A stretch of 64,000 nt of DNA. Source: Ruditapes philippinarum. Taxonomy: Eukaryota. The stretch covers positions 124,001 to 188,000 of the forward strand of contig NW_026865136.1 in the NCBI RefSeq assembly GCF_026571515.1, read 5' to 3'. Below the pieces are notes generated by a model that saw only the letters and a program-made list of their open reading frames with translations, had not been told where the DNA came from and made no database searches. How positions within the stretch are numbered: position 1 is the stretch's first letter; every line of letters starts with the position of its first letter. Both the position numbers and the translations under genes were made by a program. This document shows positions 6,807-57,740 of this stretch, piece by piece.

Positions 6807-6967
6807 ATTTTTAACGACCCTATTCATGGGCAAGTGGAGTTACATCCCGTGTGTATCCATATTATAGACACACCTCAGTTCCAGCGATTGAGACACATCA
6901 AACAACTAGACACCTGTTACCTGGTGTACCCAGGTGCCAGTCATAACAGGTTCGAGCACTCTATAGG
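6807..6967 (+). CDS. SAMHD1: SAMHD1-like A exon: [54 protein letters not shown]
   Basis: tag|ATT...GG|gtaagc, 161 nt; SAMHD1 allosteric/H167 segment. Confidence 0.95.
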
Positions 6968-9900
6968 GTAAGCGATTCTTCCAAAGGTTTGTTTTAGATC
7001 TACATAACTTTGAACAGCCTAATAACTCAACGTGTATTTAAGTACACAGTAAATGAAATACATATAATACATTTAGTTTTTTAATAAGTGCGACTTAATT
7101 AATGCATTTATCGAACAAAAGAAAAACAGGAAGCATTTATGATTTCTTTCCAGTCCGTGAGATTGAATACTATCATATATTTTCATCACAAAGGTACTAT
7201 TTATTTATCATAATGTGTAAACAAGCAGATATATATGGGAACATTAGACAAGAAAACTTGAATAAGCCTTGTTAAAAAAATTAAATGTGTCATTACAGCG
7301 TATGTTACCTAGCTGGAAAACTCTTAAGAACTATTCGAGATGGACAACCGGGTGAGGAAATATCTGTCACTGACATTCTGTGTGTTGAGATAGCGGGACT
7401 CTGTCATGATTTAGGTATGGCTAAAGAAAAATGCTTTCAATTAAACATTTCAAATGTGTTGTTCATGCACTGTTACGATTGTAATTTTATATCAATCAAG
7501 ATGTTAGTTACCGAAAATTGAATGTGCAAATCTAAGTTAAGAATTGTACAATGATGTACCAAATAATAATTGTAATAACATATGTGTATTTTGTAAAATA
7601 AATATATATTTTAAAAGGCTCGTTGTGGCACAGATAGGTTTTTATTTTATTTCTCTTTTTCTGGTGTCCTGTTATAGTAACCAAGACCACCGTTTGCTTC
7701 TGGTGCCTTTTAGTAATTAGTTAAATTTTTGTGAATTAGGATCTTGTATGGAAGTCAAAATACTACTTTCTTGACATATTCATAATGTTATGACAAATTA
7801 TTTCACATTCAACACTCCTTTCTTCATGTGTTAAGCAACTACCTTGCTCTAAAATTGTTTATGTTAAGTATCAAAACTCATATTTTCCCTTTATAAAAAA
7901 GAAAATATTTAACCGTTTCCAAGAAATTAATTTCTTTAAATGAAATTTACCTCCAAAAACATTGTACTATATTTGCTGAAGTGGTGTTTTCAAACATCTA
8001 CAGGGAAGCTATCCAGCTAGCTTACGGAATGTCGGTGGTTCTACTCTAATGCACGGAACAGCCAGTCTTTCTCCGCCAGTAAAGGTGGAACGTCGCCATA
8101 TGACCTTTACTGTGTCGGCTTGATGTAAAGCCCAATCAAAGAAACAAACAAATAATCATGAATGTATATAAGTCCAAGTCGTTCTGAAACAAAATAAAGT
8201 GAATAAAGGACGCTGAAAAAATGTACTATGATTCTCAATCTACATCATTTTAGGCCAAGGACCATATTCTCATGTGTTTGAAAAACGATTTATGCCTAAA
8301 ATGAAAAAGAAGTTTACGGTAAGTAAATTTTGTGAAGCTTAATATTTTGTCATTCACTTTTAGCAGTTTGTCATTTTGTCGCTTATATAAACAGCATCAA
8401 TATTTGTTACATCTAATGGATGGCAAAAACGAATGTATATATCTATAATAATCAATTAGTAACAAATCATTAGTTCCAAAAATAAAAGCTTAATCAGAAA
8501 AATGGCCTTTGTTATTAAATTTATGAAATCATGTGCACTAAAATATCTAAAACCAGACATAGAAGTACATGTATTCCAAAATAGAGATTTTATATTTGAC
8601 ATTTCAGCATGAAAATATTGCTCGGAAGATGTTTGAGCACATGCTTAGTACCAACAACGGACAGTTGAAAAAAGATATAAATAAGGAACTAAAAGAATGC
8701 GACCAAAACCCTTTACAAGAACAAGACTTTACCTTTATCTGTGAAATGATTGATGATCCTATAGACATTGGAAAACACGTGGTAAGAAATATTACATGAA
8801 ATGTTAACGTCAAGTTTATATTATTAAATATTTATTTGCTGATTATGAGTAATGGGCCACATAACATTTTTGCGCACAGCGACGATGACAATGACGACTA
8901 CGCCACAGGAATCTAACAGCTCGACCCAATTGTCGAGACGGACGAGCTAAGTGTCAGTGATTGTGCCATAAATACACGGTAAAGATTAAGATACTAAAGT
9001 AGATAGTCAGCTCAGTTACAGAGATAACCAATGTATCATGGAAATAAACAGTATATTTGCTACGATTATAGTAATATTTCTCTATCGTTTTTAAGATGGA
9101 TTGCAACGAAAAGAGTTTTTTTGCTTATGTGAACCTCTCCAAATTTAACAACAGGTTTGTTGTTATGTATGTAAGGTAAATTGTTGTGCCCAAACTTGGT
9201 TTTGGACCAACGGTCTCTAGGTTGAGAGTAAGATATCTTGAACAATATCACCTTCATCTTACAACAATGTATTTTGCTCTAAATGTAACTTGTTTATTCA
9301 ATATATGAAAAGCCCCGTCAATTTTAAGAACTTGTTAATTTATAGCAAATATAAAGCATTGTAGACTATAAAAGAGGAAAAGTTTAAAACACAAATAACT
9401 TAAATATTTCATACCGTGTCTTATTTGCATGGTACCGCGATGTTCCTTTGATGTTCTTCAGCTGTTAAATGAACACACCAGTAACATGCTTTATTGACAA
9501 GAACGCTCAGTGCGATATCAGAGATAACGCACACTTCTTTTATGTTGGTTCAATTTGTTTATGAATAACCGTGCCTGTAGACAAAAGAAAACAAGAGTCA
9601 CTGGACTATGTTAAATCTCAGACTAGAAAATAACGAATGTATTCAGATTGGGGAGAGGTAATGGGCTCCTGAGAATATGATCTTTAGTTAAGACACAGTT
9701 TTATCTAGAGCATGGACACACGTGTTTGAAAACAACCTCAATCTTTTTGTATAGGCAAAGACCCTTCAGATCGCACCAGGCCATGACATTTTTTACATAG
9801 CAGTCTCTTCGCTATACTTAAACTGTTATGTAAATGACACAGTTTTTTTGAAAGTAGAATAAAAGTATGTGTGTTGATTACACAAATTGTTAAAGATATT

Positions 9901-12900
9901 GATATATTTCAGGAATGGCCATACAAAGGAAGAAATATAGACAAAAGCTATATGTATGAGGTAAGGTAATTCTTCGTTATCTTTTAGGGAAAAACCGTTG
10001 ACAAATGTAAAAGTGGAATGAAAAAAGCAACATTAACTTAATGCGTTTTTTAAAATTTAATTTTCTTTCTTTTAAGTCTTTTAAGCCCACTTAAGCACTT
10101 TGTGCACAGCTGTGAAAGCATTGTCCATCGAGCATTATGCGTCTTCATCCAATATTTCTTCACACTATATCCCCCTCTCTCTCTACAGCTCATAAATCAT
10201 CCTTAGGCGGTCCTCTTCAAATAGGTTCAGTCTTGTGCAGGAGAAAAACACCCTCTTACAAACAGCATTTCTAAGGGCCTTCATATTTGGCACATTGTAT
10301 TCGTGTTCAAAAAATATAAACTTTGCTCACTTGTGGAAGTTACTTAACTAACATAAAAAAATAAAACCGTTTTGTAACAATATGTCCTTGAGTTTAATAA
10401 GTCGGTATTTAGAAATATCGATTGGACCACTAAATAAGTAATATAAGTTAAAGATTTATTTCCAAAATTATAACGGCCCCATGAAGACACCATAACCCAA
10501 ATAATTGAAGAATTAAGACATTTTAAAGTGCCACTTAAGACCATCCATTTTAATAACACTTCACTAAGATTTACTTTTGTTCGCATTTAATTGCCTCCGA
10601 GTATGAATCTGCAATGAATTGAATAGAAATAACATTTTTATATGTTTATATATCAATTATATATTATGAAACTATGACTTTGTTGTTATTGATGTTCATG
10701 AGTACACAATGCAGAAAGTCGAAATTGCAACAATGCAAAGAACAGCAGTTCATATGCACAACCACGACATATTTTATGTTTATATTATGGGCCTTCTTTT
10801 GCCGTCAATTTGCATGTCCCTTGTAACTGGAAAATTGCGAAACACAAAGAGAAAAAATGACTTTGTTGTATCTTTGTGTGTTAGCATTTTCATTTCATTT
10901 TGCTGCGAAAAAAGCGCAAATTCAACTTTGCCAAACTTACCCTAAACAAGTATGTACTGTTTGAATATAATCACAACAAGATGTTAACATCTAAAACATA
11001 CCAACATTGGATATAATCCATTTTTGTTATATTTTGAGAAATGGCATGTTTTGGTTTTATTTATTTGTATTTATTTTCAAAGGAAATATTACGACGGGTG
11101 TTCAAATATGAATACAACTGGGTCAATTTTCAGAAGTGCTTTACAAAAAGTGCTAAAATGATTTTCTCAATCCTTCGACTCACCACCATATGATATACAA
11201 AGATTTAGTCTTTTAATCCTATTTTAAATGCGTTTTCATTATTTTTATGAGCTATATTGTTCAGACACAGGCAAATAGCTAAACCAAGTTTTTTTTTTGG
11301 CATTTGATATTTCTTCCAGCAAGATGTGTTTTTGAGCCTCGGAAACAGAAAAAAGGCACAAGAGGCAGAAAAGGAGGGTTTTTGAAATATTTCTTTAACC
11401 TTTTCCCTTATATAAGCGTGTTTCGACGGCTTTTTGCCCCCCCCCCTTTTTTGAGGCCCCAAACAGTGAAAAAATGTGCTATTTAGACCCCAAACACTGT
11501 TTTTCGTTTGAGAAATGTTGTTAAAAAAGTGACCATTTTTTCGGCGCCCTCCTCCATCCAAATAATACATCAGGGGGTTGCCAGAAGGGGGATGTGCCCC
11601 CTTCTGTTTGGGGGGTTTTAAGGGGGGCGGAGTCCCCCTCATCGCCTAGAAAATTTTGGACTTGTGAGAGGCTTAAAATGACCCCAGGTTGATCATAAGG
11701 TAACGTGTAACCAACGCTGAAAAGCCTTTGACTCTATCTCAATCCCTTGAGAAGTTGCAGCACTTTGAAATACATTTTGATGGAAAAAATCGAGGCAAAA
11801 AAGTGATTTTTGGCAATTTTGAGATGTCCCCTCGTTGCCATGGTAACAGGAAATTTAAGACTGAGCATGTCGTTACAAAGGCAATGGTCCAGTCAACATT
11901 TGTGCCAAGTTTGATTAGTATTGAAGCATTTTTCATAGTTTCATAGCAGTTTGAACTTGTAAGAGGAGGCTTTTCAGTGAAAATGGCCATTTTTCACAAT
12001 ATGCTCATGGGGGAAAGGGTTAATATATGAAGGACATTCCCTTTATAAATCTTGGCATATACAGATTAACCCTTCGGTACGGCAATTATTTGAATAGCAG
12101 GATCTTGATTGGTAAAGAAAATAACATACATGACCTTTTTTTGACACTCATGGTGCGTTTTGGTATGCGATGTCTTTGACTTCCTTTGGTTTCGTATGTA
12201 TCTTTCGCTTGGGTTCATAAAAGTGAACCCAAGACTCATTACCACTTATGATATTTGCAAAAGATCGATTGTTGTTTATAGGGAATTGTTTCAACAATTA
12301 TTTGGAGATTCTTACCCGAGCATGTTCTTGCTCTTCTGTAATGTGATGGGGTATCCATCTTGCACTTATCTTTCTTATTCTTAAATTACGTCTGTGTTTT
12401 GTATGAGCGGCTCCTACAGAGATACCAACCAAATTTTAGACGGCGTACATGGAGTGCATCTTTTCTGAATCCACACCACCTTTAATTTTCTTACACCACT
12501 GTGTGACAGATGAAAAAGAAAGTTAATGTTTCCATAAACACGACATATTTTATTAAATATGTCTTTCGCTTGTATACCAAGAATACAGCGGTTCTTGATA
12601 TAGGTCCGCATTTGGTCAGTGAAAGGGAGAACTTTTCCCAACCATTTTAGCTTTAGTATACACTTATAGATAGCGATACAAAGCAAGGCTGAACTGATTT
12701 ACACATGTATTGTATCAATTGAGAGCTTCCACAACCATGCGATACATGTATATACATGTAGTTCGTACAAAACGTGGTTAAAAGCGAGATATTGGCCTTG
12801 TTGCATGCATATTTGAACAACCCTCGTATTTTATTATCAGTCTTAAATTGTGAACTATTTATAATTGTGTTTTATCTTTCATATTGTTTTATACTAGAAT

Positions 12901-15900
12901 TTATGTATTATATAGGTATGTTTTTAAACTAAAATAAATAAACATGTAAATATTTTTTTTATTTGGAACGATATGCACAATAAGTAGTAGCAATATTTAT
13001 ATGGTATTTATGATTTTACAGCTTTTGTTGTAATCGACACCATGATTGATCCCGTCTATTTTTCAGATAGTTGCAAATAAACGAAACGGTATAGACGTTG
13101 ACAAATGGGACTATCTTGCACGTGACAGTTACATGCTGGGAATGAAATTCAATGTCGATTACAACAGGTGTTTTACAAATGCAAGAGTTATCAAATGCAA
13201 CGGGATAAATGGCAGCCACGATACAAACGCAGCGCCCAATACCGGTAATGTTAAAATTGAAAGAAAACAAATATGCTATAGAGAAAAGGTGAGTAACCGT
13301 CATAAACGTATCTATGACACAAACATTTAAATTTGTTCCCAATGTTTGTACTTGTCATTAATTATTTTAATATCAAGATTTGAGATAAATGGTAAATACT
13401 ACTAAATAGTTGATAGTACGAGTAATCAAGATTTTTCCAATTACTGGGTACATGAATATGGCTAGATATAAACGGCTGTCAGCTTATATAACCTAAGCTT
13501 TTATTGAAAACAACCTTTCATACACGGCCATATAACCTGTCAGATGTTTAATAACGAATTTATATTTAATCACTTTCAAGAAAAATGAAATTTCATAAAT
13601 ATTCAACAGCCTACATTAAGTGCCAAGCTGAGGACCGTGTGTCAATTGTATGCGTTGAAATGATTTCTTCGTTAACAATTCAAAGCGATTGTATGGATTA
13701 GCATCACATTGTCATTAAAGATAAATTATAAACGATTGTATTTCACATTAAAAAAATTATATTCGTATCACGTATAAGTATAAATGGCTTGTAAAAGTGT
13801 TTCATATCTTTAAAGCTTGTTTATATTCGTTTCTATTTAGTAAACATTTTATTAGATTCCATGTACAATGACACCCGTGTTAGTTTTTGGAGCAGATGAA
13901 CCATTCCATTCTAGATTCTCTCGCAAACACCACTTATCGTTAAAGAAGCTCCACTGACCCAAAAAGCTTAAAACATACAATTTTAAAAGGAATTAAATTT
14001 AATATTGCTTTTTTGTCCGATTTCAAGCTCGGGTTGAGCTTTTCAGTCATTTTGCAAAAGAAAAATATTCTGGAAAAATGGGTTGAGGAAATAACCACAA
14101 GTCATTAGTCCAGACTCAAATCAAATCACAAGCTGATGACGTCATTTGACGTCATTTTTATATAAAAACGAAATATTAATAATTGAATTATCAAAGAATC
14201 ACTGAAAAAATCATATCTACGTTAACACAAGAACAATTAAAACTTTATTGGGCGGTATATAGTAATCAACTTTCTATTTGTTTCGGTACTTAACGCAAGC
14301 AAAGAAAATTTAATTGTTAAAAAAATAGCATGTTGAAAATTTTATAAACCTCGGCTTCTTTAGTGCCTTGGGTTATATTGATATTCTGCTTGCTACATTC
14401 CAAGGACAACTCAGCAGTCTATAAACTAATATTAGTATGTAAACAAAAATGATGTACTGTTATACATAATCAAATACTTAGAGATGTAGTATAAAACAGA
14501 GGGTATTACAAGGGCATGTCATGCACATATTTGATTATCCGTCATTTATTAGATTAAACTGTCTTTTTTTCTTCGTCTAATATGTTTCACAAATCAGAGC
14601 ACTAGATCTATAAAAACGAACAAGTCAAACAACTATTGAAAACTCTTAATAATAAAAATTTTATAGTAACATGATACATTTTGAATTTATTTCAACTTAC
14701 TTTCGACAGGCATTGTATAAAAGTAAAATTTGTAATATCATTATCATAGTATGACGTTTAATTTTCTTTTTTTGAGATTTTTCATTCCTGTAAAATGTTA
14801 ATATGTTAATTTTGTATAAATGTTATGTATTTGACAATTAAGGTAGCGCAGGACTTGTATGACATGTTTTACACAAGGATGACATTGCATAGACGGGCAT
14901 ATCAGCACAAAACTCACAAAATCATCGGAATAATGTATGTATTTGCTAGTAAAATGTTTATGTTCATATACTAATTTTTGGAATAAGAAAATTTAAATAT
15001 TTTTGATGTTCGTGTGTATGTTTGTGTGTGTGTGTGTTCGTGGGTGCGTCGGTGCGTGTGTGTGTGTTTTTTTTGTTGATGACTGTTTGTGTTTAAGGGC
15101 AATATTAAAAAAATCAAGTGATTTTTTTCGCTTATTTACTTAGATAATGAAGTCATGTTGCATTTAATAGATACCAAGATTTGTCTTTCTATCAATTTTT
15201 TTTATATTTTCGGCTTATCATTTATTCCATTCAAAGCCACTGGTTTAAATTACGCCAGTGACTTTGAAATTTCTAGAGTTAGCTTTCATATGTTTGGTGG
15301 TTATATCAAGGAGCTCGCCTTAACTTGAAAAACTAGTGTTGAACGATCTTTTTCGTTGTGGAAAAGGTTCATTGTTCGTCATGAAAAAGATCAACAATGA
15401 AACCAAGATTACGAGTTACGATTCCAGTTAATGAATTTGCATTTTGTGTGTGTGTGTGTGTGTGTGTGCGTGCGTGTGTGTGCGTGTTTGTTGTTGTTTT
15501 TATTTTTGCACGAGCCAATGTCATCTATGAATAGAAACAGTTAAAGCGTGACCGCAACATTTTCAATTTCTTCGTGTTGGTTTCATGACCTTTAGAGTCT
15601 CCTTTTTCGACTATTTTAGCACAAAAATCTATTGTTTGCTTTTAGGATTTGCGATGCATTAGAATTAGCAGATGCTCATTTTACAATAAATGGCAAGAGG
15701 TATGTAATCATTATAAATATGACATGGAGACTACCACGACTAAAAGATAGATTAATTCTATAAAATTATACCTTGGATAAAAAATTTAATCAGTTAATAA
15801 TGATTTGTTATCTATTTGACAAGAAGCATTTACATACAGCTTTACAAGGTAACGATCAACTTTTTTTATATCGTATCATTAAATGATCTTCTGGCCCCAT

Positions 15901-18900
15901 GTTCACTAAGATTTAAGGATCAGGATCAAGATAAAATTTTAAAACTCAAATATTCTTCATTGTTTATTCTCACAGATTATCACAAGTATCTGCTATAAAC
16001 TTGATAAAATTGAACTTGAAATAACATGTTTCAGAAATTTTAGAATAAATATCTTATTTTTTTAAAAGATATGGAAAATTTCAATTCATCCATAAATTGA
16101 TCTGGATCCTGAAATATATAATTAATTTGATCTAATTATACACAATGTTTTCATATTATTTGTCATTTCTTTCCGAATTAAGGTTGTTTATGTGCATATC
16201 AGCAATGTTTTATATCTCATTTATGTACCATATATTATTTTTTTTGCAAAAAAATGATCAATTGTAGTTTTATAAAGCAATGGAAAAATCCGAATCATTT
16301 AATCTTAGTGAACATGGGCCTAGGTTTAGTTGCCAGCTTATCCACGTAATTTATCGCAATTTGTAAAGCTTGTAACAGATCAATAGATGCCTTAACATTC
16401 ATCATACTGCATATTATAATAAAATACTTAAAGTTTCGTGGTACACATTAGATAAATCCCTGTATATAGACGACTATAGAGGAAAAAACAGTTATAAGTT
16501 GTTTAGGAAAATTATTCAAAAGTATCCATAACTGACTAAATTCTTTTCTAGAGAGTTCAGGATTGTAATGTGAATATGCTGATTAAAAAATAAACAATGA
16601 CATTGTAGATAACATATATACTTTAAAATTGTAATTTGATTTTTATCTTAGTAAGAATAAGAAATGATATTGTGAATTTGTGGTCTATAAAATCGTTTGA
16701 TTTTGTAAATAGAACTTGATGATGGAAAAAAACTTTTGAAACACAATATAGATGGTAAAATGCCGAGAATGATTTACAATATACATAACTAAGCTAAATA
16801 ATGTCTGTAAACACATAACAACATTATTTTACAAGTGCAACAGGTGTCCGTCCAGCCATTCATCTTTATAAATAACTCAATGATAGTACAATTTCTTGTC
16901 CTTCTTTTGTATTTGCAAGACAAGTATAAAACAGATTTCTTTCCAAGTTCTGAAAATTCAGATTAATAAATGTTTTGAGATAGTCCGTTGACATGAATCC
17001 GTGTTGAGTAATTCGTTACAACTCGTCTAGGTAGCATGGAAAGCATACACCCCAATATTTCATGTTTTTGATGGGATGTACAAGCACATGTCGTTTGTTT
17101 TACGGCGACATTGTCATTCAGTTGCTTACATTCCTGACATCTGTCACTTCGATATGGCGAATGCTACTATAAGGCGGCAATTCAGAGCAGCAGAGTTATG
17201 GAGGGCCCTAGTGTAGGTGCAGCAGGTTGTCAGGTTGATGTACACCATATCGCAATCACCGAAGCCTTGGAGAGATACCGGCTACATGGTAAACCCGCCA
17301 GGATACATGCTGGAGGTCAGCAATGGGTCACAACACCAGCTCAGGATCGGTTGTTGGTCGTTCAGGCACGCCGTGCTAGCTGTTCGACAGCAACTTATCT
17401 TCGAAATGACCTTGCTAATGCTGCGGGAGTCCGTGTTTGAACGCAAACGGTACGTAGAAGGCTGCTTGAAGGTAATTTTCGATCGGGAAGATATTGCATA
17501 AGTATCCCTTGACGAGTCAACATCGCAAGGCTCTTTCGAAATTGCCACGGAGCATAAACGATGTACATACCATGTAACATTATGTTTTCTGATGAGTCGA
17601 GATTCGGCTTAGACTTCAAAGATAGGCGTGCTAGATTCTGGAAAAGACGAGGTGAACGGTTTCAGGCTACACATATTGTTCTGCATGGCCGCTACGGGGA
17701 ATGGGTCAGTTACGGTGAGGGTAGGTATCAGCTGAAATGGACGAACCGACCAGGTTGTGCTTAATAGTGGCACATTGGCAGGTCAGCGATATATAGACGA
17801 CATCTTAGACAACCAAGTTAGGTTGTATGCTGTAGCAGTCGGCTATCAGTTCATTCTAATGGACGATAATGCTCGCCCCATAGACCCAGGGTGGTCCAGG
17901 ACTACCTAGAGAGGGATCTTTTGGTCGCATTGACTGGCTAGCTCGCTCGCCTGACTTAAATCCAATAGAACACATGTGAAATTAGCTTCAGGTTAGAATT
18001 TCAGCTCGTCAGCTGCAACCCAGAACCATCCAGGAGCGTGGAGCCAAGTTGGTCCATGAATGGGCAGGCATACCCCTTAGAACTATCAGAAACCAAATAG
18101 GGAGTATGCGAAGGCGCTTCCAATCTGTTATTGATAGTCACGGGTCACACACACGGTATTTAGTATAAAACTATTAAACAACAACAATAACAACAACAAC
18201 AATAAAAAAACAATAAAAAACAAACAATTTAACAAATTTGGAACACACGCTGCATGTTCTGAAGTCTTCAAAGAAGGATGTTATACTCTTCTCTAGCACA
18301 ACATCAGTAACACTCAAATATAGGGTAAAATTTGCCCTTCAGCTGTATTGATAAAACTGTAAATCAACATTTAAAACCTTTCGCACGGCGTTTAAAAATA
18401 ATCCCCAAAAATATTCACACTCGAACATATGGTCCTTAGCAAAAGTTGAGTAGTATAGTTTGGCTACTAGCTTTGCTTACACACTTTCATCCTTTTTTTG
18501 TGACTTCTTGTTTTTTTGTTTGTAAAATTTGCTGTTAATAACCGTGATAATTATGGACCTGGTTTGAAATTCGATATATTTGGCATTATGTGATATAACT
18601 AGAATGAACTTAACTGTTAATACATGTTGCTTTAAAGAAAAATATGAAAGCAGACATGTAATACAATTTATAAAAATAAACCTTTTAGAATTTCAGAAAC
18701 TGTTGACGATATGGAAGCCTACACATATTTGAATGATGACGTCATTCAATTGATTATAAATGATAAGGAGCCCAAACTTGAAGAAGCAAGAAAAATTTTA
18801 CGGGATATTATGTACAGACGGTTGTTAAAGTGTGTCACTCAAACACATTGTAAGGTAAGTTTGCTTTCCAATTGCCGTAGGTCAATACAGATCATTTGTG

Positions 18901-21900
18901 GATATATTGGCAAATACTACAATTTGCATATAAAGACGTATATTTTATTCTTTTAAAACAATGCCTGTAACAATGTATGTGTTGAGTAAAGGACGTAATG
19001 GTAAAAATTCAGAAGCAAATTTTCCCGTGGTGTTTATTACGGAAAGCCGTTGCGTTTTTATGTTTATTCCGAATCCTTATACATAACGTTCCGTAATTAT
19101 GTATTTTGAGGTTTTAATGTATGCTTTAAAACTATTTTAATGTTTTGTGTACATATCCCTACACCAACAGTCATTTCATTTGAAATTATTTGACATATCA
19201 GTACATGTAGTAGCATGTATTGTAATGTATGTAATTATGTGATGTAATGTAAAGCCATATAACATGACAATAGGCTAATTGTATGTAATTATGTAATGTA
19301 ATGTAAAGCCATAAACCATGACAATAGGCTTATTTGTTTAATAAGACAATAAGAAATATTTTAACATTTTAAGGACGAAAACTTGACAGAAATGGGTTTG
19401 AAAGAGGGTATATGGGAACATCTGAAAGGAACAGGAGTGGAAGAAAAGTCCCTCCATTATGACGTGAGTAAATTTCATGATACAAGGCAGAAGTTTAATC
19501 TGATCTTTAACTGTTTGCAAAAAAATATAACTTAATTAATTGAACGTGCATTCATTTATAGTATGTAAGTGTTGTGGCTTGATATCATTGAACTGCAGAA
19601 TTTGTTTAATGGATTTGCCAACCCTTGAGTTTGAAACAGTTCATTAAAGATTTAAGGAATTCCGGTGTCAAACTAAGAACAGTAAAGAACCTGGTCAGAT
19701 TGTACGATGGCCTTAAGAGTGGTGGCTAGGACTAGGTCTAGGCTCGTACCGTTTCAGCAGAGGAAGTGTTAATTATCATTTTTCAAAAGCGTATTTTGTA
19801 TTTATGATGTCTGTTGTAAGGCTGGGAAACCCTTGATTTTTTAAGAAAGAAACATCACAAATCTGGTCGTTAATGATATGCATAAATAAATTATTTCACA
19901 ATTAAATCACCGACAAAGATGCATGAATTGTTTGAAGAACAAATATGATTTCACTTTAAACAGACTATTGTACAGACTGGTACCGGTATATATCATTTAA
20001 GTACACACTCATTGTCCTTAATCTTATGGTATAGTTTTCCTAAAAGATAAAGTGTTCTTTTCTCAAAATATGTTCTATTTTCCCTAAATTTGTATGCAAC
20101 ATTTTTCCTAGATATGTTTAAAATGTAGGTAGGCAGCAGGCAGGCATGCATGCATGTATGTATGTATGACACGCTTCGTAGTATATTTGCAGTGTTTCCC
20201 CTAAATACATGTTTGTATGTTATATCTTTTTCCTATGTAATATGTGTGTATAGTTTGTCCTATATTATGTTTATAACATTCCCTTGATATGAAGCGTTTT
20301 TCTTAGATATGTATATAACAGTTAACCTCAATATGTAAGTTGGTCTTAGATATGTGTATTATAACATATTCCATTAAAATGTAGCATTTTTCTTAGATGT
20401 GTTCATAATATATTCCCTAGTTATGTAGCGTTTGTCCTATATATATTATATATAATATAACATTATCCCAACATATGTATGTAACACTTTCCATAGTATT
20501 AGAACAAATTTCCTTGTTATCCATCCTTTGTGGCTAAAGAGTTACCTTTAAGTGTTATGGTATGAGTATTGCAGCTGCCGTTTATCTCTGTGTGATCGTG
20601 AGAGACGGCTTATTGAGTTCGGATAAATAGAGTTTATGAATCTCGTAGTTCCAGCGGGTTATGTGATTTTGACCTCTGGTGTTGCTGTAAGTTTGTAAAA
20701 TCCGGAGGTAGCCAAAATAATCTTTCCTGTTTTGGCGCCATATGACCTAAATAGTGTTGGTTCGCCGTAAACAAAACCAAACAAACGTTTTTATTACATA
20801 TTGTGAAGTTTAATTATGGTATGGAGGATAAAAAACCTTAGAAAAAGTACGTTTTTATACAAAAGACCACTTTGATGAGCCAATAAGATTAGCTAAAAAC
20901 CAAGTAAGCGAATATTCTAAAATCCGTAACAGATTTACATTTAAAATTTATAGTTTCCCTCTGAACAATGTGATTATGAAATAAATAGTTTGCTTGTTTA
21001 CCGAATTAAGGTTAAATTTCTGTTTGGCTAATTTATGTCTACATACGAACACCTCGCCTTTACATGTGATAACTATGAATAAGGTCTGCATCTTGAATAC
21101 AAAAATATTCATATTCACCAATACGAATATGTTAGTATTGTAAATGAAAACAATAATGTCGTCTACTATATTAAACACAAGTATTAACATGATATATATA
21201 TAAATCAAATAAATAAAAAGACTTATGTTTGACCGCAATTATTAAAACACTATGCAGGTCTCCTACGTACTGCCGGACGTTTTTGAAGAGTGCATCATAC
21301 GCCTATACTGCAAGATTGAAGACCCAAGTCAAGAATCAATTGTCAGAAAGGTTACAACAGCATTTGGAGAATGGTGTCGTGAAAAGGGCTATCCTTTACC
21401 ACAGGTAGGCCTGCATAAAAATTCACGTATTGTTTTCATTTATTGGGAGACATGATAATTATAGTCCTCAAATTTGAAAAGCACGGTTTTGTGCCACTTA
21501 TTTCTTTTTTACTTTATTAGTAATCAAATTGTTTTGGGTTTTTCAAGTTAGGCAATACACATAAATTGCAAGATTTACACCAAACAATATTTGGGAGGTT
21601 TGCAATTTTTTACCTTTATGATGAGCCCCTTCATTACATTTTGAATGATTGTGTAGCCTTGATTATAGTAATTACTGTTGTATTTTCTCAAAATGGGCTG
21701 AACAGATTTTTAAAATAGACCGAGAACTCGGTTACTGAAGTCGGTACCCTGTTGCGTTTATTTTTTCCATTATACATGGAAAATCTGGAGCCCAGCCATA
21801 CTTTGTATTGTAAAAAAGGAAATAGGTATGAAAACTGTCCGTCAGTAAGACATTTTTCACAATCACCATTGTGAACAATTGTCGAACATTGGATTTATCA

Positions 21901-37411: not shown

Positions 37412-37558
37412 GTTTCGTATGTTCTTTGCGACAATTTTAAGGAGAGTATTATACGTATCTATTGTAATATGCAGGACGATTTTGAAAAGGAAATCGTGTT
37501 TAAAGTGACATAAGCGTTTGGAGAGTGGTGTAAGGACAATCAATGTACCAATCCAGAG
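37412..37558 (+). pseudogene. SAMHD1: Orphan copy of the SAMHD1-like B penultimate exon, with in-frame stop
   Basis: Near-identical to 56489-56635, including flanking intron (about 37250-37760 vs 56330-56860); TAA at 37511-37513. Confidence 0.93.
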
Positions 37559-47930: not shown

Positions 47931-49844
47931 GAACGTGAGTTTTAAATAAAGTAATCAAAACTGTTCTTTTACAAAATATTTAACCTTAACGCCGAAGAAA
48001 GACACTTTTTATTCTTGTTAAACAGAAAAGCTACAATTGTATGCTATTCATCTTTATTTTTTTAGCTTTATTTGCAATTTGAAACTGAAACCAACCAGAA
48101 TACATGGCTTCTTCGTTACAAAACCAACGTACAACAACAGAAAGTAGACAAAGTTTGCAAGAACAGGCAAATAAATTATATAGAAACAGGAAAGTAAGTA
48201 CAATTATTTAAATTCTTTGTAATATTGTTGGATTTTGTTTTTAATTGATAACTTCTGTATTGTTAATTTTATACTGGGCTTTTAATTGGACTTTCACGTT
48301 ACGTGTAGAGGACTGAATACCGTCTACCGGTTCTATAGGGCGTGATAGATGCTGCATTTTTCCATATTCCGTCATGAGAACAGACTCATCTAACCAAGTC
48401 TGCAATTTTCATATATATAAAATGTCGATATAATTGAAATGTCGATTTTCTTGTTTCTGATGGGTCTTCTCTTTTCTAGATTTTCAGTAGACAGGGTTTC
48501 ATCTATGATTGCAAGGATTAACAATAAGACCGTTTCAATGATTGCAAGTACAGTCACACACAAGTGATAATGTATTTAAGTCCTACTACACATTGACCGC
48601 ACTTGATTTGATTTGATTAAGAAATTTGCAGTTTGTATATCATGAAAGAGGATGCAACGCTTGAAAAGGTTTCAAACCCCGTCTGTTGTTTTTCGTTTTC
48701 ATTTACATGTAATATGCCGTTTACTCTCTTTTATTTTTTTAAAATGTTAACTGAAATGAAAATTTTACGATTTTTAATTCATATAACTTTGGCAGGGGCA
48801 AAAATATAAGTCTTGCCGTAAGAGTACAAACAACACAATAATTATTGTATTGTTGAATTCAACTTTTTGTATAAATTAGGTAATACTGAAATATATCTTA
48901 TCGTCAACCTGTTATCTTTTAAATCTGACAAGTCAAATGTTCTCAGAAAGTGAGACCTTAATGTAAACAAACTACCTTGGATTATATCACACATATTGAT
49001 CATAAACCTATTTCAATGATCACAACGATTTATTTCAAGCAAAAAACATATTTATCAAAAAAATGTCAATATATCAAAATAGATAAAAGCTATGTAAAAT
49101 GAAAATAGAAAATTCAGGGAACAGAAAAACCCGTCTCACAATATTATATCTATCATAAATTATGTCATAAATGTTAGTGGAAGCTTATCATTTGATACCA
49201 CATGTACCGTATTAGTTTTTATCCTGATTTCACATGGTATCAAATACCACGGAGCTCATACCCGTAAAGAAAGTATCATTCATTTGAAGTTAATAAGGTA
49301 TATTACACTATATGATGAGTTTGTAAGTAAGGATTGTTTTTGAGTATTACAACAGTTCTTTAATGTTTGCCGATATTATGATCTTGCATATTTTTAGGAT
49401 TATTGACAGTGTAACGCTTTAAGGTACACAAACCCTGCCGGTGTAGAGCTAGCTCACATTCCCTTTTGTTAACTTAACAACTTTAGTATTTGCATATCAG
49501 CATGCTCATTATGACGTTCTACCAACGTCGTTACAACATCTTAAATTAAGGGACCCGCTGATGTTTTTTATTGACGTGGCTGGATGGGAAATATTTTTTT
49601 TGAAATTAGTTTTCCATTTGATACATGTCTGGACGAATCAGTTGTGTGCAAATGCCTAATCTGTTTGTTCAGAAAAATCACTTAAATTGTGTAAAATAAC
49701 TTTAAATGAAAAGTTTTAACTCAAGTCGGGCTACTAATCGTACAAAAATCGATTTTCAATTGAATTGCTATGCTAATGAGAATAATTACTTTATAGTTAA
49801 TGCTTAATTACTGTTTTCTTAAATTGGTCACTTTAATTCAATAG

Positions 49845-50005
49845 GCTTTCCAGGATTTCATTCATGGAAAAATAGAGTTACATCCGGTGTGTGTTCGTAT
49901 CATTAATACACCGCAATTTCATCGTCTCCGACACATCAAACAAATAGGGACCTGCTATTACGTGTACCCAACTGCCTGTCACAACCGATTTGAGCATTCT
50001 ATAGG
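49845..50005 (+). CDS. SAMHD1: SAMHD1-like B exon [54 protein letters not shown]
   Basis: tag|GCT...GG|gtaaaa, 161 nt. Confidence 0.94.
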
Positions 50006-53000
50006 GTAAAATATTACATTCTATGTATTTAGTTCATCTGAGCACAAATGACTCAGATGTGACTTTTTCGTGATGGCAGTTGTGTCTGTCGTTTGTCGTA
50101 ATCCACAATTTCATTAAACAACATCTCATGTAAAAGTACCCGGTGGATCTTTACATGAATGATACTTAGACAATCTTTTAAAAGTATTTAAAAATTGTAG
50201 AATTGGTTTTAGTTTGATACATAAGAAGGTTGCAGAATTTATGAAATGCGGTCTATAAAAATCCCTCTTGTCCTGAACAACAATTCCTGGAGCTTAAATA
50301 CATGGCATGAAATATCTCTAGGGGGCCTCTACTAAAATTATTCAAATAGCCATTGCATGGGTGTAAATTAGTGCCTCAAAGGCTAACGTTTCGATATTTG
50401 GTATGATATTGAGTAATAAATCACTGACTTTCCTTAATAAACTATGACTTAAATTCCAATGACTGACTTCCATTAGCAACCCGTGATTTATATAGTAACC
50501 ATAGACTTTAAATTTTTGCAATAACAACCTGTGGCTTTTATATTTTATATGCTTACTATTCAGAGGCACTTTCTTTTCACCCAGATTTTGGACTAAAACC
50601 TGCCATTTTGTTCCTTGTCATAGGCACCCTTTATAGTGTGATATGCGATTAAAGGATAATCATGGTCCTGTTGTTTCCCTTTGGTCTTGTATATCGATCA
50701 TATGCCTGGCCCAGTGATATCTTTACGGCACACTAATTTTGTCTCTAAGATCCCACAAGGTAAGCAATTTCTTAAATGTTGGCATTTTTGACAGCCTGTT
50801 GTGTATCTATATTATAATGATATTGTGAAAATATTTTTACGTTAAATAAAACACATTTTATAACAATCTTTGAATGAACATTGCATCATAGAACTTAAAA
50901 GTTACATGCAGTTATAGCGGAAACTCCTCAGAGTGGTCCTTTGTAGAACAATTACATATTTAAAACGGTAATTATAGAGAAGGACTTCGTTATTATTTAA
51001 ACCGTTTTTGAACAGCACCTCTAGGCAGCACACACACTTTTTGTCTCTTACAAATGTTTATGCACTTTAGATGTTGTGCTTTAGCTATCTAAACACATGT
51101 TCGTTGCTTTGTTTAATCAGTTTGTTTTTTATGGCAGTGTATGTTACCTCGCTGGAAAACTGGTCCGAAAACTCAAAGAACGACAGCCAGACGAAAATAT
51201 AACAGACGTAGACATTTTATGCGTAGAAATCGCCGGAATCTGTCATGATTTAGGTAGGCAATGCCAGTTCAAGATACGTCGTTGAACGCCACTCTTGCTT
51301 GTTGATCCTGTTTTCAATATAATTTGACATATTAGAGTCGCTCTACAAGTCAGTTCCAACCGTACAAGTAAAGGCTACACGGACATGCGGAATGTGAATG
51401 ATTAACATGACTAGTGAATTACCCTTAGTTGTCGTGAATATCCCTCCAACATTCAAATAGGTTATGCGCTTGAAATGTCTTTTCTGCATTAACGATTGAC
51501 CAGTTCAATGAAGCCAGCCAAAAGAAAAAAGTGACACATTTTAAGCTAGCTGTAATATTAACGTGTCGGACTAAAAACGTTATTTCTGCACATCTTCCCA
51601 CCAAATACCTATTACATCCATGACGAAACCCACAAAACATAGAACATACAAATAATTACTTTTTACGCATTTGGCCATTAACTTTGACATTGTCTTTGGC
51701 ATGTCAATAAGAAAACCATTTGATGTTTGTTTCATAAAATCAATCCAGAAGTTTACAAGTCACAGAGGGAACACATCTGTTGACATTTAACTGTACTTTT
51801 GATTTTTAATATTTCATTTGGCATTGAACTTAAGTGATTGCAAATTCTGCAACTGCGATTTATGATATGAGCACCCGGCACAAGGATGATTTACACGTCT
51901 CAATAGTTTCAAAACATTAAGACCGAACACAATTCCTTGATAAATATTAAACGATAAGCTGTAAGACTGTTAACAAATTGACTTTGAAATCGTGGTTTGC
52001 CATCTTAAACGTATTTAAGTTTTGCTCCTTGTCTTAATGATGAATTTAAAATCAGTCTCATTAAACAGATACATGTTTTAAAGAGAACTACTGTAATGTT
52101 TTTACAATAACCTAATTAGGTAAGTCAATTAGTCTACTTTTGATCTCATTACTAAATCTTTATTATTGTTTCCATAAACTGACAGAAGCACCTACCCCTT
52201 CAAATGTATGCTTGTATGTACGGATGCATGGACCGTCGATCAGCTTCATAACATAATATAGCTTATGATGCCAATAGAAAGGATTTTTAAAAATTTGATA
52301 ATTTAATGATGAATCATCAAAGGTAAAATCATTTTCAGATTTTAACATTTGAAAGTAGTTTAGTAATTTTGGAAACATTTAGAGTGGTTTAATTATGAAT
52401 GTTTCCTCTAACTCTTATTTACCAGCATTTTTAAACAAATTTTTTAACGATTTCAGATTGTTGCAAATGATAGAAACGGTGTTGATGTTGATAAATGGGA
52501 TTATCTGGCACGTGACAGTCATATACTTGGATTGAATATGACGCTAGATTACGAGAGATGCTTTACTAGTGCTCGAGTTATTAAAAGCAATGGAGAAAAT
52601 GGGGGTAATGGAACAAATGGTGAACATGCTATTGTTCCTCGGAAGCAAATTTGCTATAGAGAAAAAGTAAATTCTTTATCATTAAAACATCATAAAAACA
52701 AAATAATGCATTGTTTAATCATATAAAACTGAAATGGGTGTACAAACATTAATTATGAAAACGACAATGTCACACGTACATGTCAAACTATTGCTTAACC
52801 TAGCCTTCATCAACACCGCTGTTGGTTCGAATTTCGTCAACGACGTTTAATTCGTTCATGTGAGGAACTTTTATAGACAGCTTAAGTAAAATCGGTGGCT
52901 TTGAATCCCGTTCCGGTCTGAAATAATGCACGAAGGTGAAAATGGGCTCCAGCAGTAAAATGAAAACCAAATGACCTAGTTTTTCCTTTCAAAACTTTAT

Positions 53001-56000
53001 AAGCGTATTCTTTCCACATTTTATCACTTATTTGATGACATTACCCTTCCTGTCACATTTTAAAATTTGGGACGCTGACGACCTTTAGCTACACATGACA
53101 TGGTGTCGATGTGTTTTAAACCTAAATTAATAAACTGTCGATTCATAAAGGTAAAATATCTTTCTACTCCGCTGGCCTCATGGTATTCTGTAAATGTTTT
53201 ATATCAAAACTGATGCATGCATATTATATTGTTTATATTTCAGGACGCTTTAGACTTATATGACATGTTTTACGCAAGACTGAACTTACACAGACGGGCT
53301 TATCAGCACAAGACGCATACAGTTATTGGTCTTATGTAAGCTTATAAAATCTGAACCATGACTTTACTTCTTGATAAATTTGCATTTTGATGTTTTCGAA
53401 AAACTTTCACATGCAAATGTTTACAATAGATAAATTACACTTTATTAGTGATAATATTAGTGGGTGATGCAAATGAGCTAAGTACAAAAGAATATAAATC
53501 TAGAAGTAATAGGTAACATTTCTCATTTCAGGATTTCCGATGCCTTGATAGCAGCAAATGATTCTATATTAATTGGAGGGAAAAAGTAAGCTAATATTAT
53601 ACCTATGATAGTTTCGAATCACTTATTTAGTCTAGATAAGAATATAAAGAAACCACATAAAGATAAATCACTAAGATGCACTAAATTTACTTTAAGTACA
53701 TTGTTATGGTAATCTTTACGTCCACCTAATAAAGTATAGTTGTGTATATTAACATGTCATATGAAATAATAGATTGTTCAACAAATGATATCTTTTTTTT
53801 GGAAGCAAATACACGTATACATTATATTCTTACTAGCGTTTTATTCCTTGCGGTCCGAAGACCGCAGGGTATTGGTACGCGTTTTACTTTTGAGGCATGG
53901 AGGAGCACGTGACCAGTTTTCGGTGCATGGAGGAGCATGTGATCTGTAAACCGTACACGATTGGTTAATTGACCTTTTCGATAACCTGGCTAAATACCGT
54001 TTGTCGTTACTTTACGGAATTACCTCGAAGGAATTAGTCAGATTTAAACCTAATTAAGAACAAAAACCTATTACGTGATATTTCTAATTTTCTATAATTA
54101 TTTTACCGTTTAAGGTGGAAAAACTTGAATGATTTATTTGAAAATTATCATTGTTTCTTTAATATATGTATCTCAAATTTTACAAACAATAAATTGTTTA
54201 TAATGAAAATCTACAAAATTAAAATATTCTTAGTGGCATCTGCCATAATAAATAGAGATATTTTCTGCGTAAACTTGTGTGTTTACTTTATTTTTTTTTT
54301 GCTTTTAATTATTCATAATATGGTAGGCCTATTTAATCATTTTCTTAAAAAGAAATAATTGTTTTATGTTCGACCTTCTCCGGTCATCAACGGTCACCAG
54401 TTTTGAAAGACCTTCTATATTGATCGATTATTGTCAACTATATTCCCGATATAAACGTTTATTTATTCCCCTCTGCCAAAACGGTGTTGAAAATAGTTAA
54501 ATGAAATATCTTTATATATGAAAAATGTTCCCCGCAGGAAACCATTTTTACTTGTTACTCAGTTAGTTTGCTATCGTTGATTTAGAATTACAGAGACAGT
54601 GGACGACATGAAGGCATTCACACTTTTGACAGACGATGTCCTCCAGTTGATTATCCATAAAAAGAAGGAAGAAGACTCAAGAGGCAAAGACAACCCACAA
54701 CTTGACAGAGCATATCAACTGATACAAGATATCATGAACAGAAGACTGTATAAATGTGTTTCCCAAACACATTGTAAGGTAAACAAGTATATGTTTACTA
54801 AAGGTATGCATTTTTGTTCAGCTATGTAATGCTAGCGTATTTATTATATGCTGTTACGTGCTATTGCTCACCTTTATGATGAATATTACAAGTATGTTGA
54901 AAAAAAGCTATCCGTTTTTCGTTTAAAGGTAAGCTAACATGGCATTTGTATTTTCGGTTTAACGAAATAAACTGGCACTTGCTTGATAATTAGCCCCGTT
55001 ATAATTCTACAGGTTACCCTTTTTTCTACAAAATATTGCCTTTACTTCAAGCAATAAATGGCCTTATCGATTGTTTTGTGGGCCCTTTGGCTGAACAAAA
55101 ATTAGTGAAAGTGATTATTCTGGAAAGAAATGGCGTGGACCAAAGACATAAAAATTTGTACCTAAGTTACTGGTCCATACACACATAATTGATAAATAAA
55201 ACTTGACAAAACCTTTCCAAGCTCTTCATGCCAAAAACACCTCCTTGGAGTTTCTTTTAAAAATGTAGTACGAATTCTTCTATCCCCTTTTATGAATATA
55301 AGCTTCATCGACACAACAAGTACCATTCCCATGTATGTACAGCGGTTACCTTTACAGTTTCTTTTGTCGATTATAGGATAAAAATCTAACAAAAGCAGAC
55401 GTATTAGATGGACTGAAAAAATGTTTGAAAGACAAAAGTGTTCCAGAAAATTTTATAATCGTTAACGTAAGTAAGGACAAAAATAATATAATATCTATTT
55501 AAAAATTCAGATCTGTAGGGAAAAAATATTACTGAAACAATATCCAAAGGTTATTTTATATATTTTTCAGTAAAAGAAAAATTAATATCAAGAAAAGGTT
55601 CTTGTCATTACAGTTATAATGACAATGTCATTTTTAAAGATATACCGCTATGTTTTAAGGACGACATTTAATTGTGTTATAGTCTATCTTATCAGATTTG
55701 TTTGGTTACCATACCTGACAGTCCGTACAGTCAAAAGGCGGTTAAAATACTAGACACAATAAGTTTCTATTAAACATTATTTTTAAATTTGTAAAACAAT
55801 TAATATAGCAAAAAATGTAATGAAGTACCGCATGTTCGCCTAAGACGGGCACAATGTAAAGACTCTTACAGATATAATTTGATCAAAACGCATTTCTAGG
55901 CGGTATAGTGTGTAATTATGTTTTTATAAACTAATGAAATCCATTTATTCATATTTACAAACACGATCAGCTTCATCAATATATAATGCTGCAAATCTTA

Positions 56001-57740
56001 AACGCATCGCTTCAATGTTTTAGATTGTGAAATTTAACTACGGTATGAAAAATAGAAATCCTTTGGATAAAGTACGATTTTACAAGAAAGACAAATTGGA
56101 TACAGCTTTCAAATTAAAAAAGGAACAGGTACTTTAAAAGTTTCTTGACTTGTATATCATTATGCATAAATTAACCGACTAAATAACTTAAACTGTAAAT
56201 TCTTAAACTAGTTATCAAGTTATGATATTCATAAGTTGTTTTGACTGAGATTGTTTTCATTCAGTTGATTATGATATCTGAAAGTGAGTCACACCAGTAA
56301 CCCTTGTTCGTCTTCTTTAAAAGGCTCGTTTGTGTATGAAACCTTCTTCTCTAATGTCTTCTAATAAGATCTTTTCCCAGATGCATTCCTATCGCCACGT
56401 AGTAAACATTAATGATTGAAAGAGAACATCGGAATGTAAAGTACATGTATTACAAACAGTGTTGAGTATTTGTGAATATATTTAACAGGTTTCGTATGTT
56501 CTTCCCGACACTTTTGAGGAGAGTATTATACGTATCTATTGTAATATGCAGAACGACTCTGAAAAAGAAATCGTGTCTAAAGTGACTGAAGCGTTTGGAG
56601 AGTGGTGTAAGGACAATCAATGTACCGATCCAGAGGTAATTTATGCCCTACAATGAATGGAATCAAAGACATACATTTAATGATGGCACATAGCATTAAC
56701 ATACAAGGTCATGTACATCCTCTCCGCGAGAAGCAAAAATTCATTTTTGTCCAAATCATATTTGAATAAACATACAATGTATCCACCTTTCAAAGTGTTT
56801 TTTTGCAGAATGTCTTAATAAAAGTTTAACACTATTTAATTTTGTAGATAAAATACAGAAAATAAAAGGACAAATATGCCTTAAAAATGCTTTTAACTTT
56901 ATAACTCAAATGTTTTATTGTTTTTTGTTGTTTTTTGTGTGTATGTGTACTCTTATCGTTTCCAAAATAGTTAAAAATACCCATTGGCCATTTAGCTGAA
57001 TCATCTTTTTGTCAATGAATACATGTAAAGTGACTTAGTATTTTGTAATTCAAAATACTACTTTCTTCAGGTAACATGCATTTTACATGATTTACAACAA
57101 TTATTCAAGTGGATTATTCAAACAAATACATTTAATTGTGTCATCAGTCATCAAATTATGGATGTGTTATCTTTTGTTATCTCTTTCGCTTGCCCGATAG
57201 CCTGAATAAGTTAAATCAATATATAAATATTTTATTTTGCCTTTGAAAATCTGCCAGTCTTATTGATATTATTACATTATCGTACATTTTCTTCGCATCA
57301 AAACGTCTTTTAAAGTAATCCGTTACACGACTGTAACTACTAATGAAAATAGATTGCAAGAGAATATTTTGATAGAGTGAAATAAATATTTGATAGTTTG
57401 CATTTTTTTATTCTTAATTCGGCAAACAATACGACATATGAGGTAAAATAAAAATAAATGACGATATTGTAACAAAATTTGAAAGTTTTAATGCTAGAAA
57501 TGAATTTGACAAAGAATAGATAATAAAACGAAATGTTACACTTTGTAGGGCAAATATCATCAAACAAGACCGAAAACAAAAGCGTCAAACGAACCGATAG
57601 GCTCAAACACACAGGGACATTCAGATGAACCTGTACCTAAACCCTTACCCGAACCTGCATCAGGTCAATCAAGTCTAGTGCAGCCAATAGTTTATGACGG
57701 AGAAGGGATAGATGTACGATCACAAACAACAGACCAGTAA
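49845..57740 (+). CDS. SAMHD1: SAMHD1-like paralog B (multi-exon; three internal exons absent; possible pseudogene or pseudoenzyme)
   Basis: Exons 49845-50005, 51138-51253, 52457-52666, 53244-53335, 53532-53585, 54586-54778, 55377-55466, 56024-56128, 56489-56635, 57549-57740. All are open with GT-AG ends and share intron positions with A. Confidence 0.92.
50028..50680 (+). mobile_element. Degenerate HINE-like element in an intron of B
   Basis: tttagttcatctgagcaca..tcagatgtgactttt hairpin head, gtctgtcgt microsatellite, catggtcctgttgtt end. Confidence 0.55.
51138..51253 (+). CDS. SAMHD1: SAMHD1-like B exon with HD motif (VCYLAG...IAGICHDLG)
   Basis: cag|T GTA...TTA G|gtaggc, 116 nt. Confidence 0.94.
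52457..52666 (+). CDS. SAMHD1: SAMHD1-like B exon [22 protein letters not shown]...QICYREK
   Basis: cag|ATT...AAA|gtaaat, 210 nt. Confidence 0.94.
52800..52985 (+). mobile_element. Degenerate SINE
   Basis: ggttcgaat B box, catgtgaggaa..cagctta..cggtgg..gaaataatgcacgaagg core. Confidence 0.6.
53244..53335 (+). CDS. SAMHD1: SAMHD1-like B exon [30 protein letters not shown](M)
   Basis: cag|GAC...AT|gtaagc, 92 nt. Confidence 0.94.
53532..53585 (+). CDS. SAMHD1: SAMHD1-like B exon [17 protein letters not shown](K)
   Basis: cag|G ATT...AA|gtaagc, 54 nt. Confidence 0.9.
53839..54556 (+). mobile_element. HINE/DINE-like element
   Basis: 5' ttattccttgcggtc-cgaa-gaccgcaggg hairpin and 3' ccccgcaggaaaccatttttacttgtt. 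Confidence 0.6.
54586..54778 (+). CDS. SAMHD1: SAMHD1-like B exon [17 protein letters not shown]...[15 protein letters not shown]
   Basis: tag|A ATT...AAG|gtaaac, 193 nt. Confidence 0.93.
55377..55466 (+). CDS. SAMHD1: SAMHD1-like B exon [30 protein letters not shown]
   Basis: tag|GAT...AAC|gtaagt, 90 nt. Confidence 0.87.
56024..56128 (+). CDS. SAMHD1: SAMHD1-like B exon [35 protein letters not shown]
   Basis: tag|ATT...CAG|gtactt, 105 nt; YGM..NP...V.FY.K motif. Confidence 0.93.
56489..56635 (+). CDS. SAMHD1: SAMHD1-like B exon [18 protein letters not shown]...[14 protein letters not shown]
   Basis: cag|GTT...GAG|gtaatt, 147 nt. Confidence 0.93.
57549..57740 (+). CDS. Probable terminal exon of paralog B (GKYHQTRPK...KPLPEPA...TTDQ*)
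   Basis: tgtag|GGC in phase 0, 64 codons ending TAA; disordered composition; PEPA shared with the A tail. Confidence 0.72.
   Translation, partial: GKYHQTRPKTKASNEPIGSNTQGHSDEPVPKPLPEPASGQSSLVQPIVYDGEGIDVRSQTTDQ

Follow-up and report, generated by a model that had tools for sequence, protein, structure and literature searches.

SAMHD1-like paralogs of the clam Ruditapes philippinarum with a substituted guanine-reading site: a possible change of allosteric activator

SAMHD1-like genes in the window

The 64-kb stretch of Ruditapes philippinarum DNA analysed here (the window) contains two SAMHD1-like genes, paralogs A and B, both on the + strand. Paralog A is represented by exons 2-13 (6807..21404, + strand), and its exon 2 (6807-6967) encodes N119, D137 and Q142 in human SAMHD1 numbering, which is used throughout. 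Exon 12 of this gene (20800-20903) lacks one base in a run of A, resulting in a frameshift and an early stop; the lesion is either genuine or due to misassembly of the homopolymer. Downstream of paralog A lies a 250-codon open frame without a Pfam hit (22746-23498). Two diverged (~78%) transposon-like copies, one of them inside an intron of paralog A, are found at 11089-12828 and 40282-41509 and presumably resemble a mariner-type transposase. Reverse-transcriptase remains of the non-LTR retroelement type are present at 58853-61349 (- strand), with a Pfam RVT_1 match in 59718-60905, and at 1788-3090. An isolated 3' piece of a B-type gene, comprising exons 12-13 and interrupted by an in-frame stop, is located at 36761-37567.

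Copy B starts with an ATG in exon 1 (48104..48193, + strand) and has no SAM domain. Its exon 2 (49845..50005, + strand), which runs from GCT to GG between intronic ag and gt, covers human-equivalent residues 117-170, that is, the allosteric site 1 segment and the catalytic R164/H167; the numbering comes from an alignment in which query residues 3-53 pair with 119-169 of 7ujn_A, a chain of 626 aa. The codons of interest, all on the + strand, are those of Q119 (CAG, 49851..49853; a site-2 contact that is N in most homologues), N137 (AAT, 49905..49907; AAC in c2, a sister copy, as well as in a spliced contig), H142 (CAT, 49920..49922), R145 (CGA, 49929..49931; the third guanine reader, retained) and T159 (ACT, 49971..49973; a clade-specific residue in the loop adjoining V156/F157). 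A preliminary description of this DNA had reported the AAT and CAT codons and Q119, all of which are borne out. It had placed them in an otherwise conserved block, where two guanine readers are indeed changed, but P121F/L, H125K and G159T differ as well. The best solved-structure match of the exon is 6TX0, an engineered D137N human SAMHD1. An alternative acceptor within the exon, at the CAG of 49851-53, is ruled out: the 161-base exon is matched in every paralog, and the entry point of a spliced contig is 49847.

The exon map of copy B was obtained by placing the 578-residue protein P0003, and every exon was found except 4-6. Exon 3 (51138..51253, + strand) ends just past the HD motif (H206, D207). 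Exons 7-14 (52457..57740, + strand; 52457-52666, 53244-53335, 53532-53585, 54586-54778, 55377-55466, 56024-56128, 56489-56635 and 57549-57737 followed by TAA) have intact AG/GT ends, contain no stop and encode D311, D330, R333, R352, K354, R372, H376, R451 and K455. Copy B follows c1, an intact sister copy described below, through exon 3 and 20 intron bases to 51273 and resumes at 51294 in c1 intron 6; at this deletion junction (51273..51294, + strand) intron 3 is fused to intron 6, and exons 4-6 are absent, a gap of ~4.3 kb and 287 coding bases relative to c1. The losses include H215, H233 and the positions of H210 and D218, and a direct splice from exon 3 to exon 7 would meet a stop after 126 residues. 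The exons of copy B are identical to the public model XP_060569554.1 (P0006), which masks the three-exon deletion behind a 20-base patch, a frame-repairing micro-exon (52186..52205, + strand) that is intronic in the intact copies and whose acceptor AG is absent in c1 and c2. Thus, the catalytic set R164, H167, H206, D207, H215, H233 and D311 is incomplete in the assembled copy B (H215 and H233 missing), and the idea that this copy itself is a working, rewired enzyme fails for the gene as assembled and can hold only for intact alleles or sister copies. Intron 9 of copy B harbours a very high-copy repeat (53841-54548) with internal inverted arms that is abundant in RNA reads on both strands.

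The missing exons of copy B were not found elsewhere in the assembly, in which exon 5 has two close copies, both on contig C3378. In three of the five DNA-type sequencing runs (X2, X9 and X11, representing three studies and other animals), long near-identical contigs part from the window sequence at 51278/51279, and the loose end at the junction in X11 resembles c2 intron 3; among the contigs listed, none spans the deletion junction. A short repeat at 51282-51314 contributes unrelated loose ends near this point. Run X15, classified as RNA by guess, yields spliced contigs across 9 exon junctions, including those from exon 3 to exon 4 and from exon 6 to exon 7. Exon 7 of X15 differs from copy B at 1 of 212 bases, whereas copy B differs from c1 and c2 by 13 and 17, respectively; because exon 10 of X15 differs from B, c1 and c2 alike, the transcript would come from an allele resembling B or from an additional paralog. 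Among the matches listed, the change at codon 137 in X15 is synonymous (AAC). In the 4-5% of the raw RNA runs X23 and X24 that was read, depth is about one-fold or less over exons and introns alike, with no exon joints listed. Given that contigs of other animals diverge at the junction and that a spliced transcript includes exons 4 and 6, the deletion reflects either an assembly error or an allele that is broken; the clade of copy B does have intact, transcribed members.

The clade of copy B in the clam genome

The R. philippinarum genome contains at least 34 matches to exon 2, a count that may include haplotype duplicates; 33 complete copies were counted, and the 34th match, a frameshifted fragment, was excluded. 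Residues 119/137/142/145 read N/D/Q/R in 28 of these copies, K/D/Q/R in one and Q/N/H/R in four. The substitutions, for which the preliminary description had named restriction to a single copy as one part of the refuting outcome, are shared by 4 of the 33 copies: B, the tandem c1 and c2 on contig C3378, and a copy truncated by the end of contig C3527. The latter differs from c1 by 2, 4 and 3 bases in exons 1-3, respectively, and is probably an allele of c1, so that the Q/N/H/R clade would comprise about three loci. In a quick tree, B groups with c1 and c2 in a single clade (support 100) with a stem of 0.45 changes per site, the group of paralog A is its sister (support 94), and the Mercenaria paralogs fall outside.

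Both c1 and c2 consist of 14 exons with open frames free of stops, and intact N137/H142 homologues, which the preliminary description had proposed to look for in related species, are present in the same genome but were not found outside the species: protein searches, in which few clams were sampled and which are accordingly weak evidence, found no further member of the clade. A region-limited protein search for N137/H142, likewise weak given its strict word filter, returned one candidate (P0003), and the exon search for longer proteins returned six. None of P0003, P0006 and P0007 has a SAM domain, Pfam HD being the only match, and a SAM domain is present in the Mercenaria protein P0038.

The SAMHD1-like expansion takes the form of tandem clusters in this clam and of a parallel expansion in Mercenaria, with many members carrying H210Q and D218E at the active site; our literature search found nothing on SAMHD1 expansion in bivalves. 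A fragment similar to that at 36761-37567 of the window sits between c1 and c2 (C3378:33134-34950), and the last exon of c1 occurs in three tandem versions (C3378:42025-43395), possibly providing alternative C-termini. The public isoform models P0007 and P0008 (C3378:15608-58716) fuse c1 exons with c2 exons, so that two genes are annotated as one.

Within the clade, pairwise dN/dS is 0.25 (c1-c2), 0.31 (B-c1) and 0.35 (B-c2), at dS of 0.15-0.26, compared with 0.21-0.40 in the A-type sister group; dS between the B clade and its sister paralogs is 1.5-2.1 over long alignments. Exon 2 of c1 and c2 differs at 8 synonymous versus 3 non-synonymous codons. By these measures, the B clade is constrained, though no more than the A-type group, and it is a small clade of SAM-less duplicates kept by purifying selection.

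Conservation was assessed over 122 near-invariant positions (conservation of 95% or more across 118 background proteins), numbered via a peccary SAMHD1 whose motifs we take to fall at the human residue numbers. The B clade departs at nine of these: N119Q, P121L, D137N, Q142H, G159T, E234K, F329L, A389V and S410T. Two of the three guanine readers are among the changed positions (hypergeometric P = 0.014), an enrichment that comes from two residues of three in a clade whose long stem makes some changes at conserved sites expected. The wider allosteric residue set (3 of 16 changed, P = 0.095) is not significant, nor is exon 2 as a whole, which holds five of the nine changes (P = 0.059). H210Q, D218E and N358D are older changes, common to many venerid paralogs with D137.

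The catalytic and metal core (R164, H167, H206, D207, H215, H233, D311) is retained in c1 and c2, and c1 also retains K312, D319, R366, Y374 and Q375. Accessory differences in the clade comprise H210Q, D218E and E234K, with Y315C in c2. E234 is retained in 168 of the 180 tabulated proteins, among which a few are gapped at this position, and is Lys in the B clade; this change adjoins the metal ligand H233, recurs in the catalytically dead protein P0001 and has a counterpart in E234R of P0020, which carries H215Y. The clade retains the site-1 triphosphate ligands K116, R451 and K455, the site-2 residues R333, R352, K354, R372 and H376, as well as R145, F165, V156 and D330. The altered residues are the guanine readers of site 1, which are N137, H142 and R145 instead of D137, Q142 and R145, and the base contacts of site 2 (N119Q, N358D).

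The structure of P0007, a public model in which c1 exons 1-8 are fused to c2 exons 9-14, was predicted with confidence (pLDDT 85.8), with Pfam HD as its domain. It matches SAMHD1 structures with a Foldseek E of ~1e-41 and a target TM-score of 0.83-0.90 for most listed chains. Residue 137 of this model lies in a loop between two helices, where Asn may simply be a tolerated substitute.

Allosteric site 1 and its candidate activators

In human SAMHD1, D137, Q142 and R145 read guanine, the triphosphate is held by K116, R451 and K455, the residues that adapt to the base in site 2 are N119 and N358, and GTP is the usual site-1 activator (PMC7045340). D137A, Q142A and R145A each lower tetramerisation and hydrolysis (PMC7045340). 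Activity is abolished by mutation of H215, the general acid, and H233 binds metal as the second ligand (PMC7311409). Single-stranded RNA and DNA can also place a G in site 1 (PMC10711556, PMC7854603), for which oligonucleotides compete (PMC7854603). Human D137N is activated by XTP instead of GTP, with comparable catalytic parameters (PMC7311409); at 0.5 mM, XTP is an at least 7-fold better activator than GTP, and in single-stranded DNA the mutant favours dX over dG (PMC10711556). The analogy with a guanine-to-xanthine switch drawn in the preliminary description is thus firmer than claimed there. In cells, human D137N behaves as dNTPase-deficient, and HBV restriction is lost (PMC4882586).

The human enzyme, a GTP-activated tetrameric dNTPase (PDB 4TNP, 6TXC, 7UJN), shares with the clam clade the fold, the HD metal ligands, H215 and the site-2 and triphosphate ligands, at ~42% identity. 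The clam proteins differ in the lack of a SAM domain, in N137/H142/Q119 for D/Q/N, in P121L, H125K, G159T, E234K, H210Q, D218E and N358D, and in being encoded by a family of more than 30 copies. The engineered human D137N (PDB 6TX0, 6TXA, 6TXF, 6YOM; PMC7311409, PMC10711556) shares N137, R145 and R451 with the clade, but the clam change is natural, fixed in the clade and paired with Q142H and others, whereas the engineered protein keeps Q142 and E234.

In the reading we prefer, though we rate it as no better than an even call, site 1 of the B clade would still bind a 6-oxopurine triphosphate and prefer XTP, with GTP activating weakly. By analogy with human D137N, the pocket would keep all O6/N7 and triphosphate ligands, and the reader of the N1/N2 edge would be altered toward xanthine; ordinary cellular GTP would then activate the dNTPases encoded by the intact copies only weakly. 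This reading assumes that H142, in place of Gln, would still make the O6 contact, that E234K, H210Q and D218E would leave catalysis working, and that the human result would carry over to the clam protein. It is supported by the preference of human D137N for XTP together with the retention of R145, the triphosphate ligands and the catalytic core in the clade. It is weakened by the dNTPase deficiency of human D137N in cells, by the lowered tetramerisation and hydrolysis of Q142A, by the Lys at the widely retained E234 (with Y315C in c2), by the loop position of residue 137, where Asn may be no more than tolerated, and by the fact that the D to N change is a single transition.

A compensated or bypassed site, which we regard as doubtful though a serious contender, would mean that Q142H, N119Q, P121L, H125K and G159T rebuild site 1 such that GTP or dGTP still activates, or that the oligomer forms without ligand. 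The clustering of five of the nine near-invariant changes in exon 2, in the vicinity of both allosteric sites, is in line with such rebuilding, and an enzyme under selection needs an available activator, which is usually GTP (PMC7045340), but human D137N alone prefers xanthine (PMC7311409, PMC10711556), and 12 domains elsewhere combine N137, Q142 and R145 without H142. For a ligand-free oligomer there is a precedent in Enterococcus faecalis EF1143 (PDB 2O6I), a SAM-less HD dNTPase with a guanine-type first site that forms tetramers without nucleotide (PMC8177086); EF1143 is distant in sequence, and its first site is strictly dGTP-specific (PMC8177086). Loss of the ligand would not require the retention of all site-1 triphosphate ligands, yet all are retained, and activator independence, which the preliminary description had offered as an option, finds no support given that K116, R145, R451, K455 and the site-2 phosphate ligands are in place.

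It is rather unlikely that the clade has a non-catalytic or weakly catalytic role, whereby E234K with H210Q/D218E would cripple hydrolysis and N137 would remove GTP gating, leaving a nucleic-acid binder or a partner in mixed oligomers that tunes the sister paralogs. Such a role is suggested by the clade-specific change at a near-invariant site beside H233, by the company that substitutions of E234 keep in P0001 and P0020, by Y315C in c2, by the binding of G of single-stranded nucleic acids at site 1 (PMC10711556, PMC7854603) and by the dNTPase deficiency of D137N in human cells (PMC4882586). Against this, c1 keeps all metal ligands and R164, H215, K312, D319, R366, Y374 and Q375 after a long stem, H210Q/D218E are common to many venerid paralogs that keep D137, and the passages of PMC7311409 and PMC7045340 searched do not mention E234, whose one hit in PMC8177086 belongs to a citation. 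Relaxed selection, with neutral site-1 changes in a decaying, redundant branch of the >30-copy family, would fit the fast family turnover, the deletion in the assembled B, the frameshift in A and the stop-bearing 3' fragments nearby, but is largely refuted and very improbable, in agreement with the earlier judgement that the changes are not random decay, given a B-clade dN/dS far below 1 (0.25-0.35; similar in the A-type group), two open 14-exon copies, a spliced transcript and only synonymous variation at N137 (AAT/AAC).

With respect to the preferred reading, a switch toward XTP, physiological sensing of XTP or ITP in the clam is improbable on present evidence. ITPase normally removes XTP, which is non-canonical. 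Our literature search found no XTP measurement for clams; in cassava, high pools of non-canonical nucleotides have a proposed antiviral role (PMC8893687). The same search, with subscription papers and supplements outside its scope, found no report of natural D137N or of ITP activation of SAMHD1. SAMHD1 is usually presented as gated by GTP, and in the literature found D137N is encountered solely as a laboratory construct; N137 paralogs that occur naturally, repeatedly and under selection are ready proteins with which to ask whether the activator changes in nature, and they bear on whether XTP or ITP ever signals in animal cells. If only a dampened GTP gating is true, the clade would show how the expanded bivalve family divides its work.

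N137 in other animals

Among 157 exon-2-like domains, taken from the best 150 of 6011 representative hits, N137 is present in 19, with no other replacement of D137, and N137 together with H142 occurs beyond the B clade only in the 145-aa fragment P0162. Among 180 longer proteins (at least 250 aligned residues), N137 is present in 18, four of which belong to the B clade, isoform models included. These frequencies are inflated since the representative set was picked with an N137-bearing query; in a full-length set with less bias, 3 changes occur at position 137, on a par with positions 218, 234 and 330. On a FastTree tree of the 180 proteins with several weak nodes, N137 arose in approximately 10 changes. 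All 18 N137 proteins keep R145, and 16 keep all seven core catalytic residues.

The N137 proteins of other animals include those from the cichlid Maylandia zebra (XP_024655906.1), the milkfish Chanos chanos (XP_030645129.1), Octopus vulgaris (CAI9733954.1), Argonauta hians (GAB1602044.1), the crayfish Procambarus clarkii (XP_069184321.1), the ascidian Styela clava (P0019) and the snail Physella acuta (XP_059152272.1), and the literature found holds no characterisation of these proteins. All seven resemble the clam clade in carrying Asn at 137 and retaining R145, with an intact catalytic core in all but Physella, but unlike the clade they keep Q142 and are placed apart on the tree. The broader proposition is that dNTP-depleting SAMHD1 duplicates activated by XTP, or perhaps ITP, as deaminated purine nucleotides in place of GTP have arisen several times in animals and stay quiet until stress or infection raises the non-canonical pools. 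It seems to us a long shot; were it true, none would be more remodelled than the clam clade, which combines D137N and Q142H.

Three N137 proteins (P0149, P0159 and P0177) carry Y374C with Q375H or Q375K at the sugar-selecting gate, and Y374C is also found in fish paralogs with D137. Some SAMHD1-like proteins are long (850-1000 residues), namely P0001 (Physella acuta), P0016, P0017 and P0019, and P0001 contains two domains, both with N137, and a dead HD motif.
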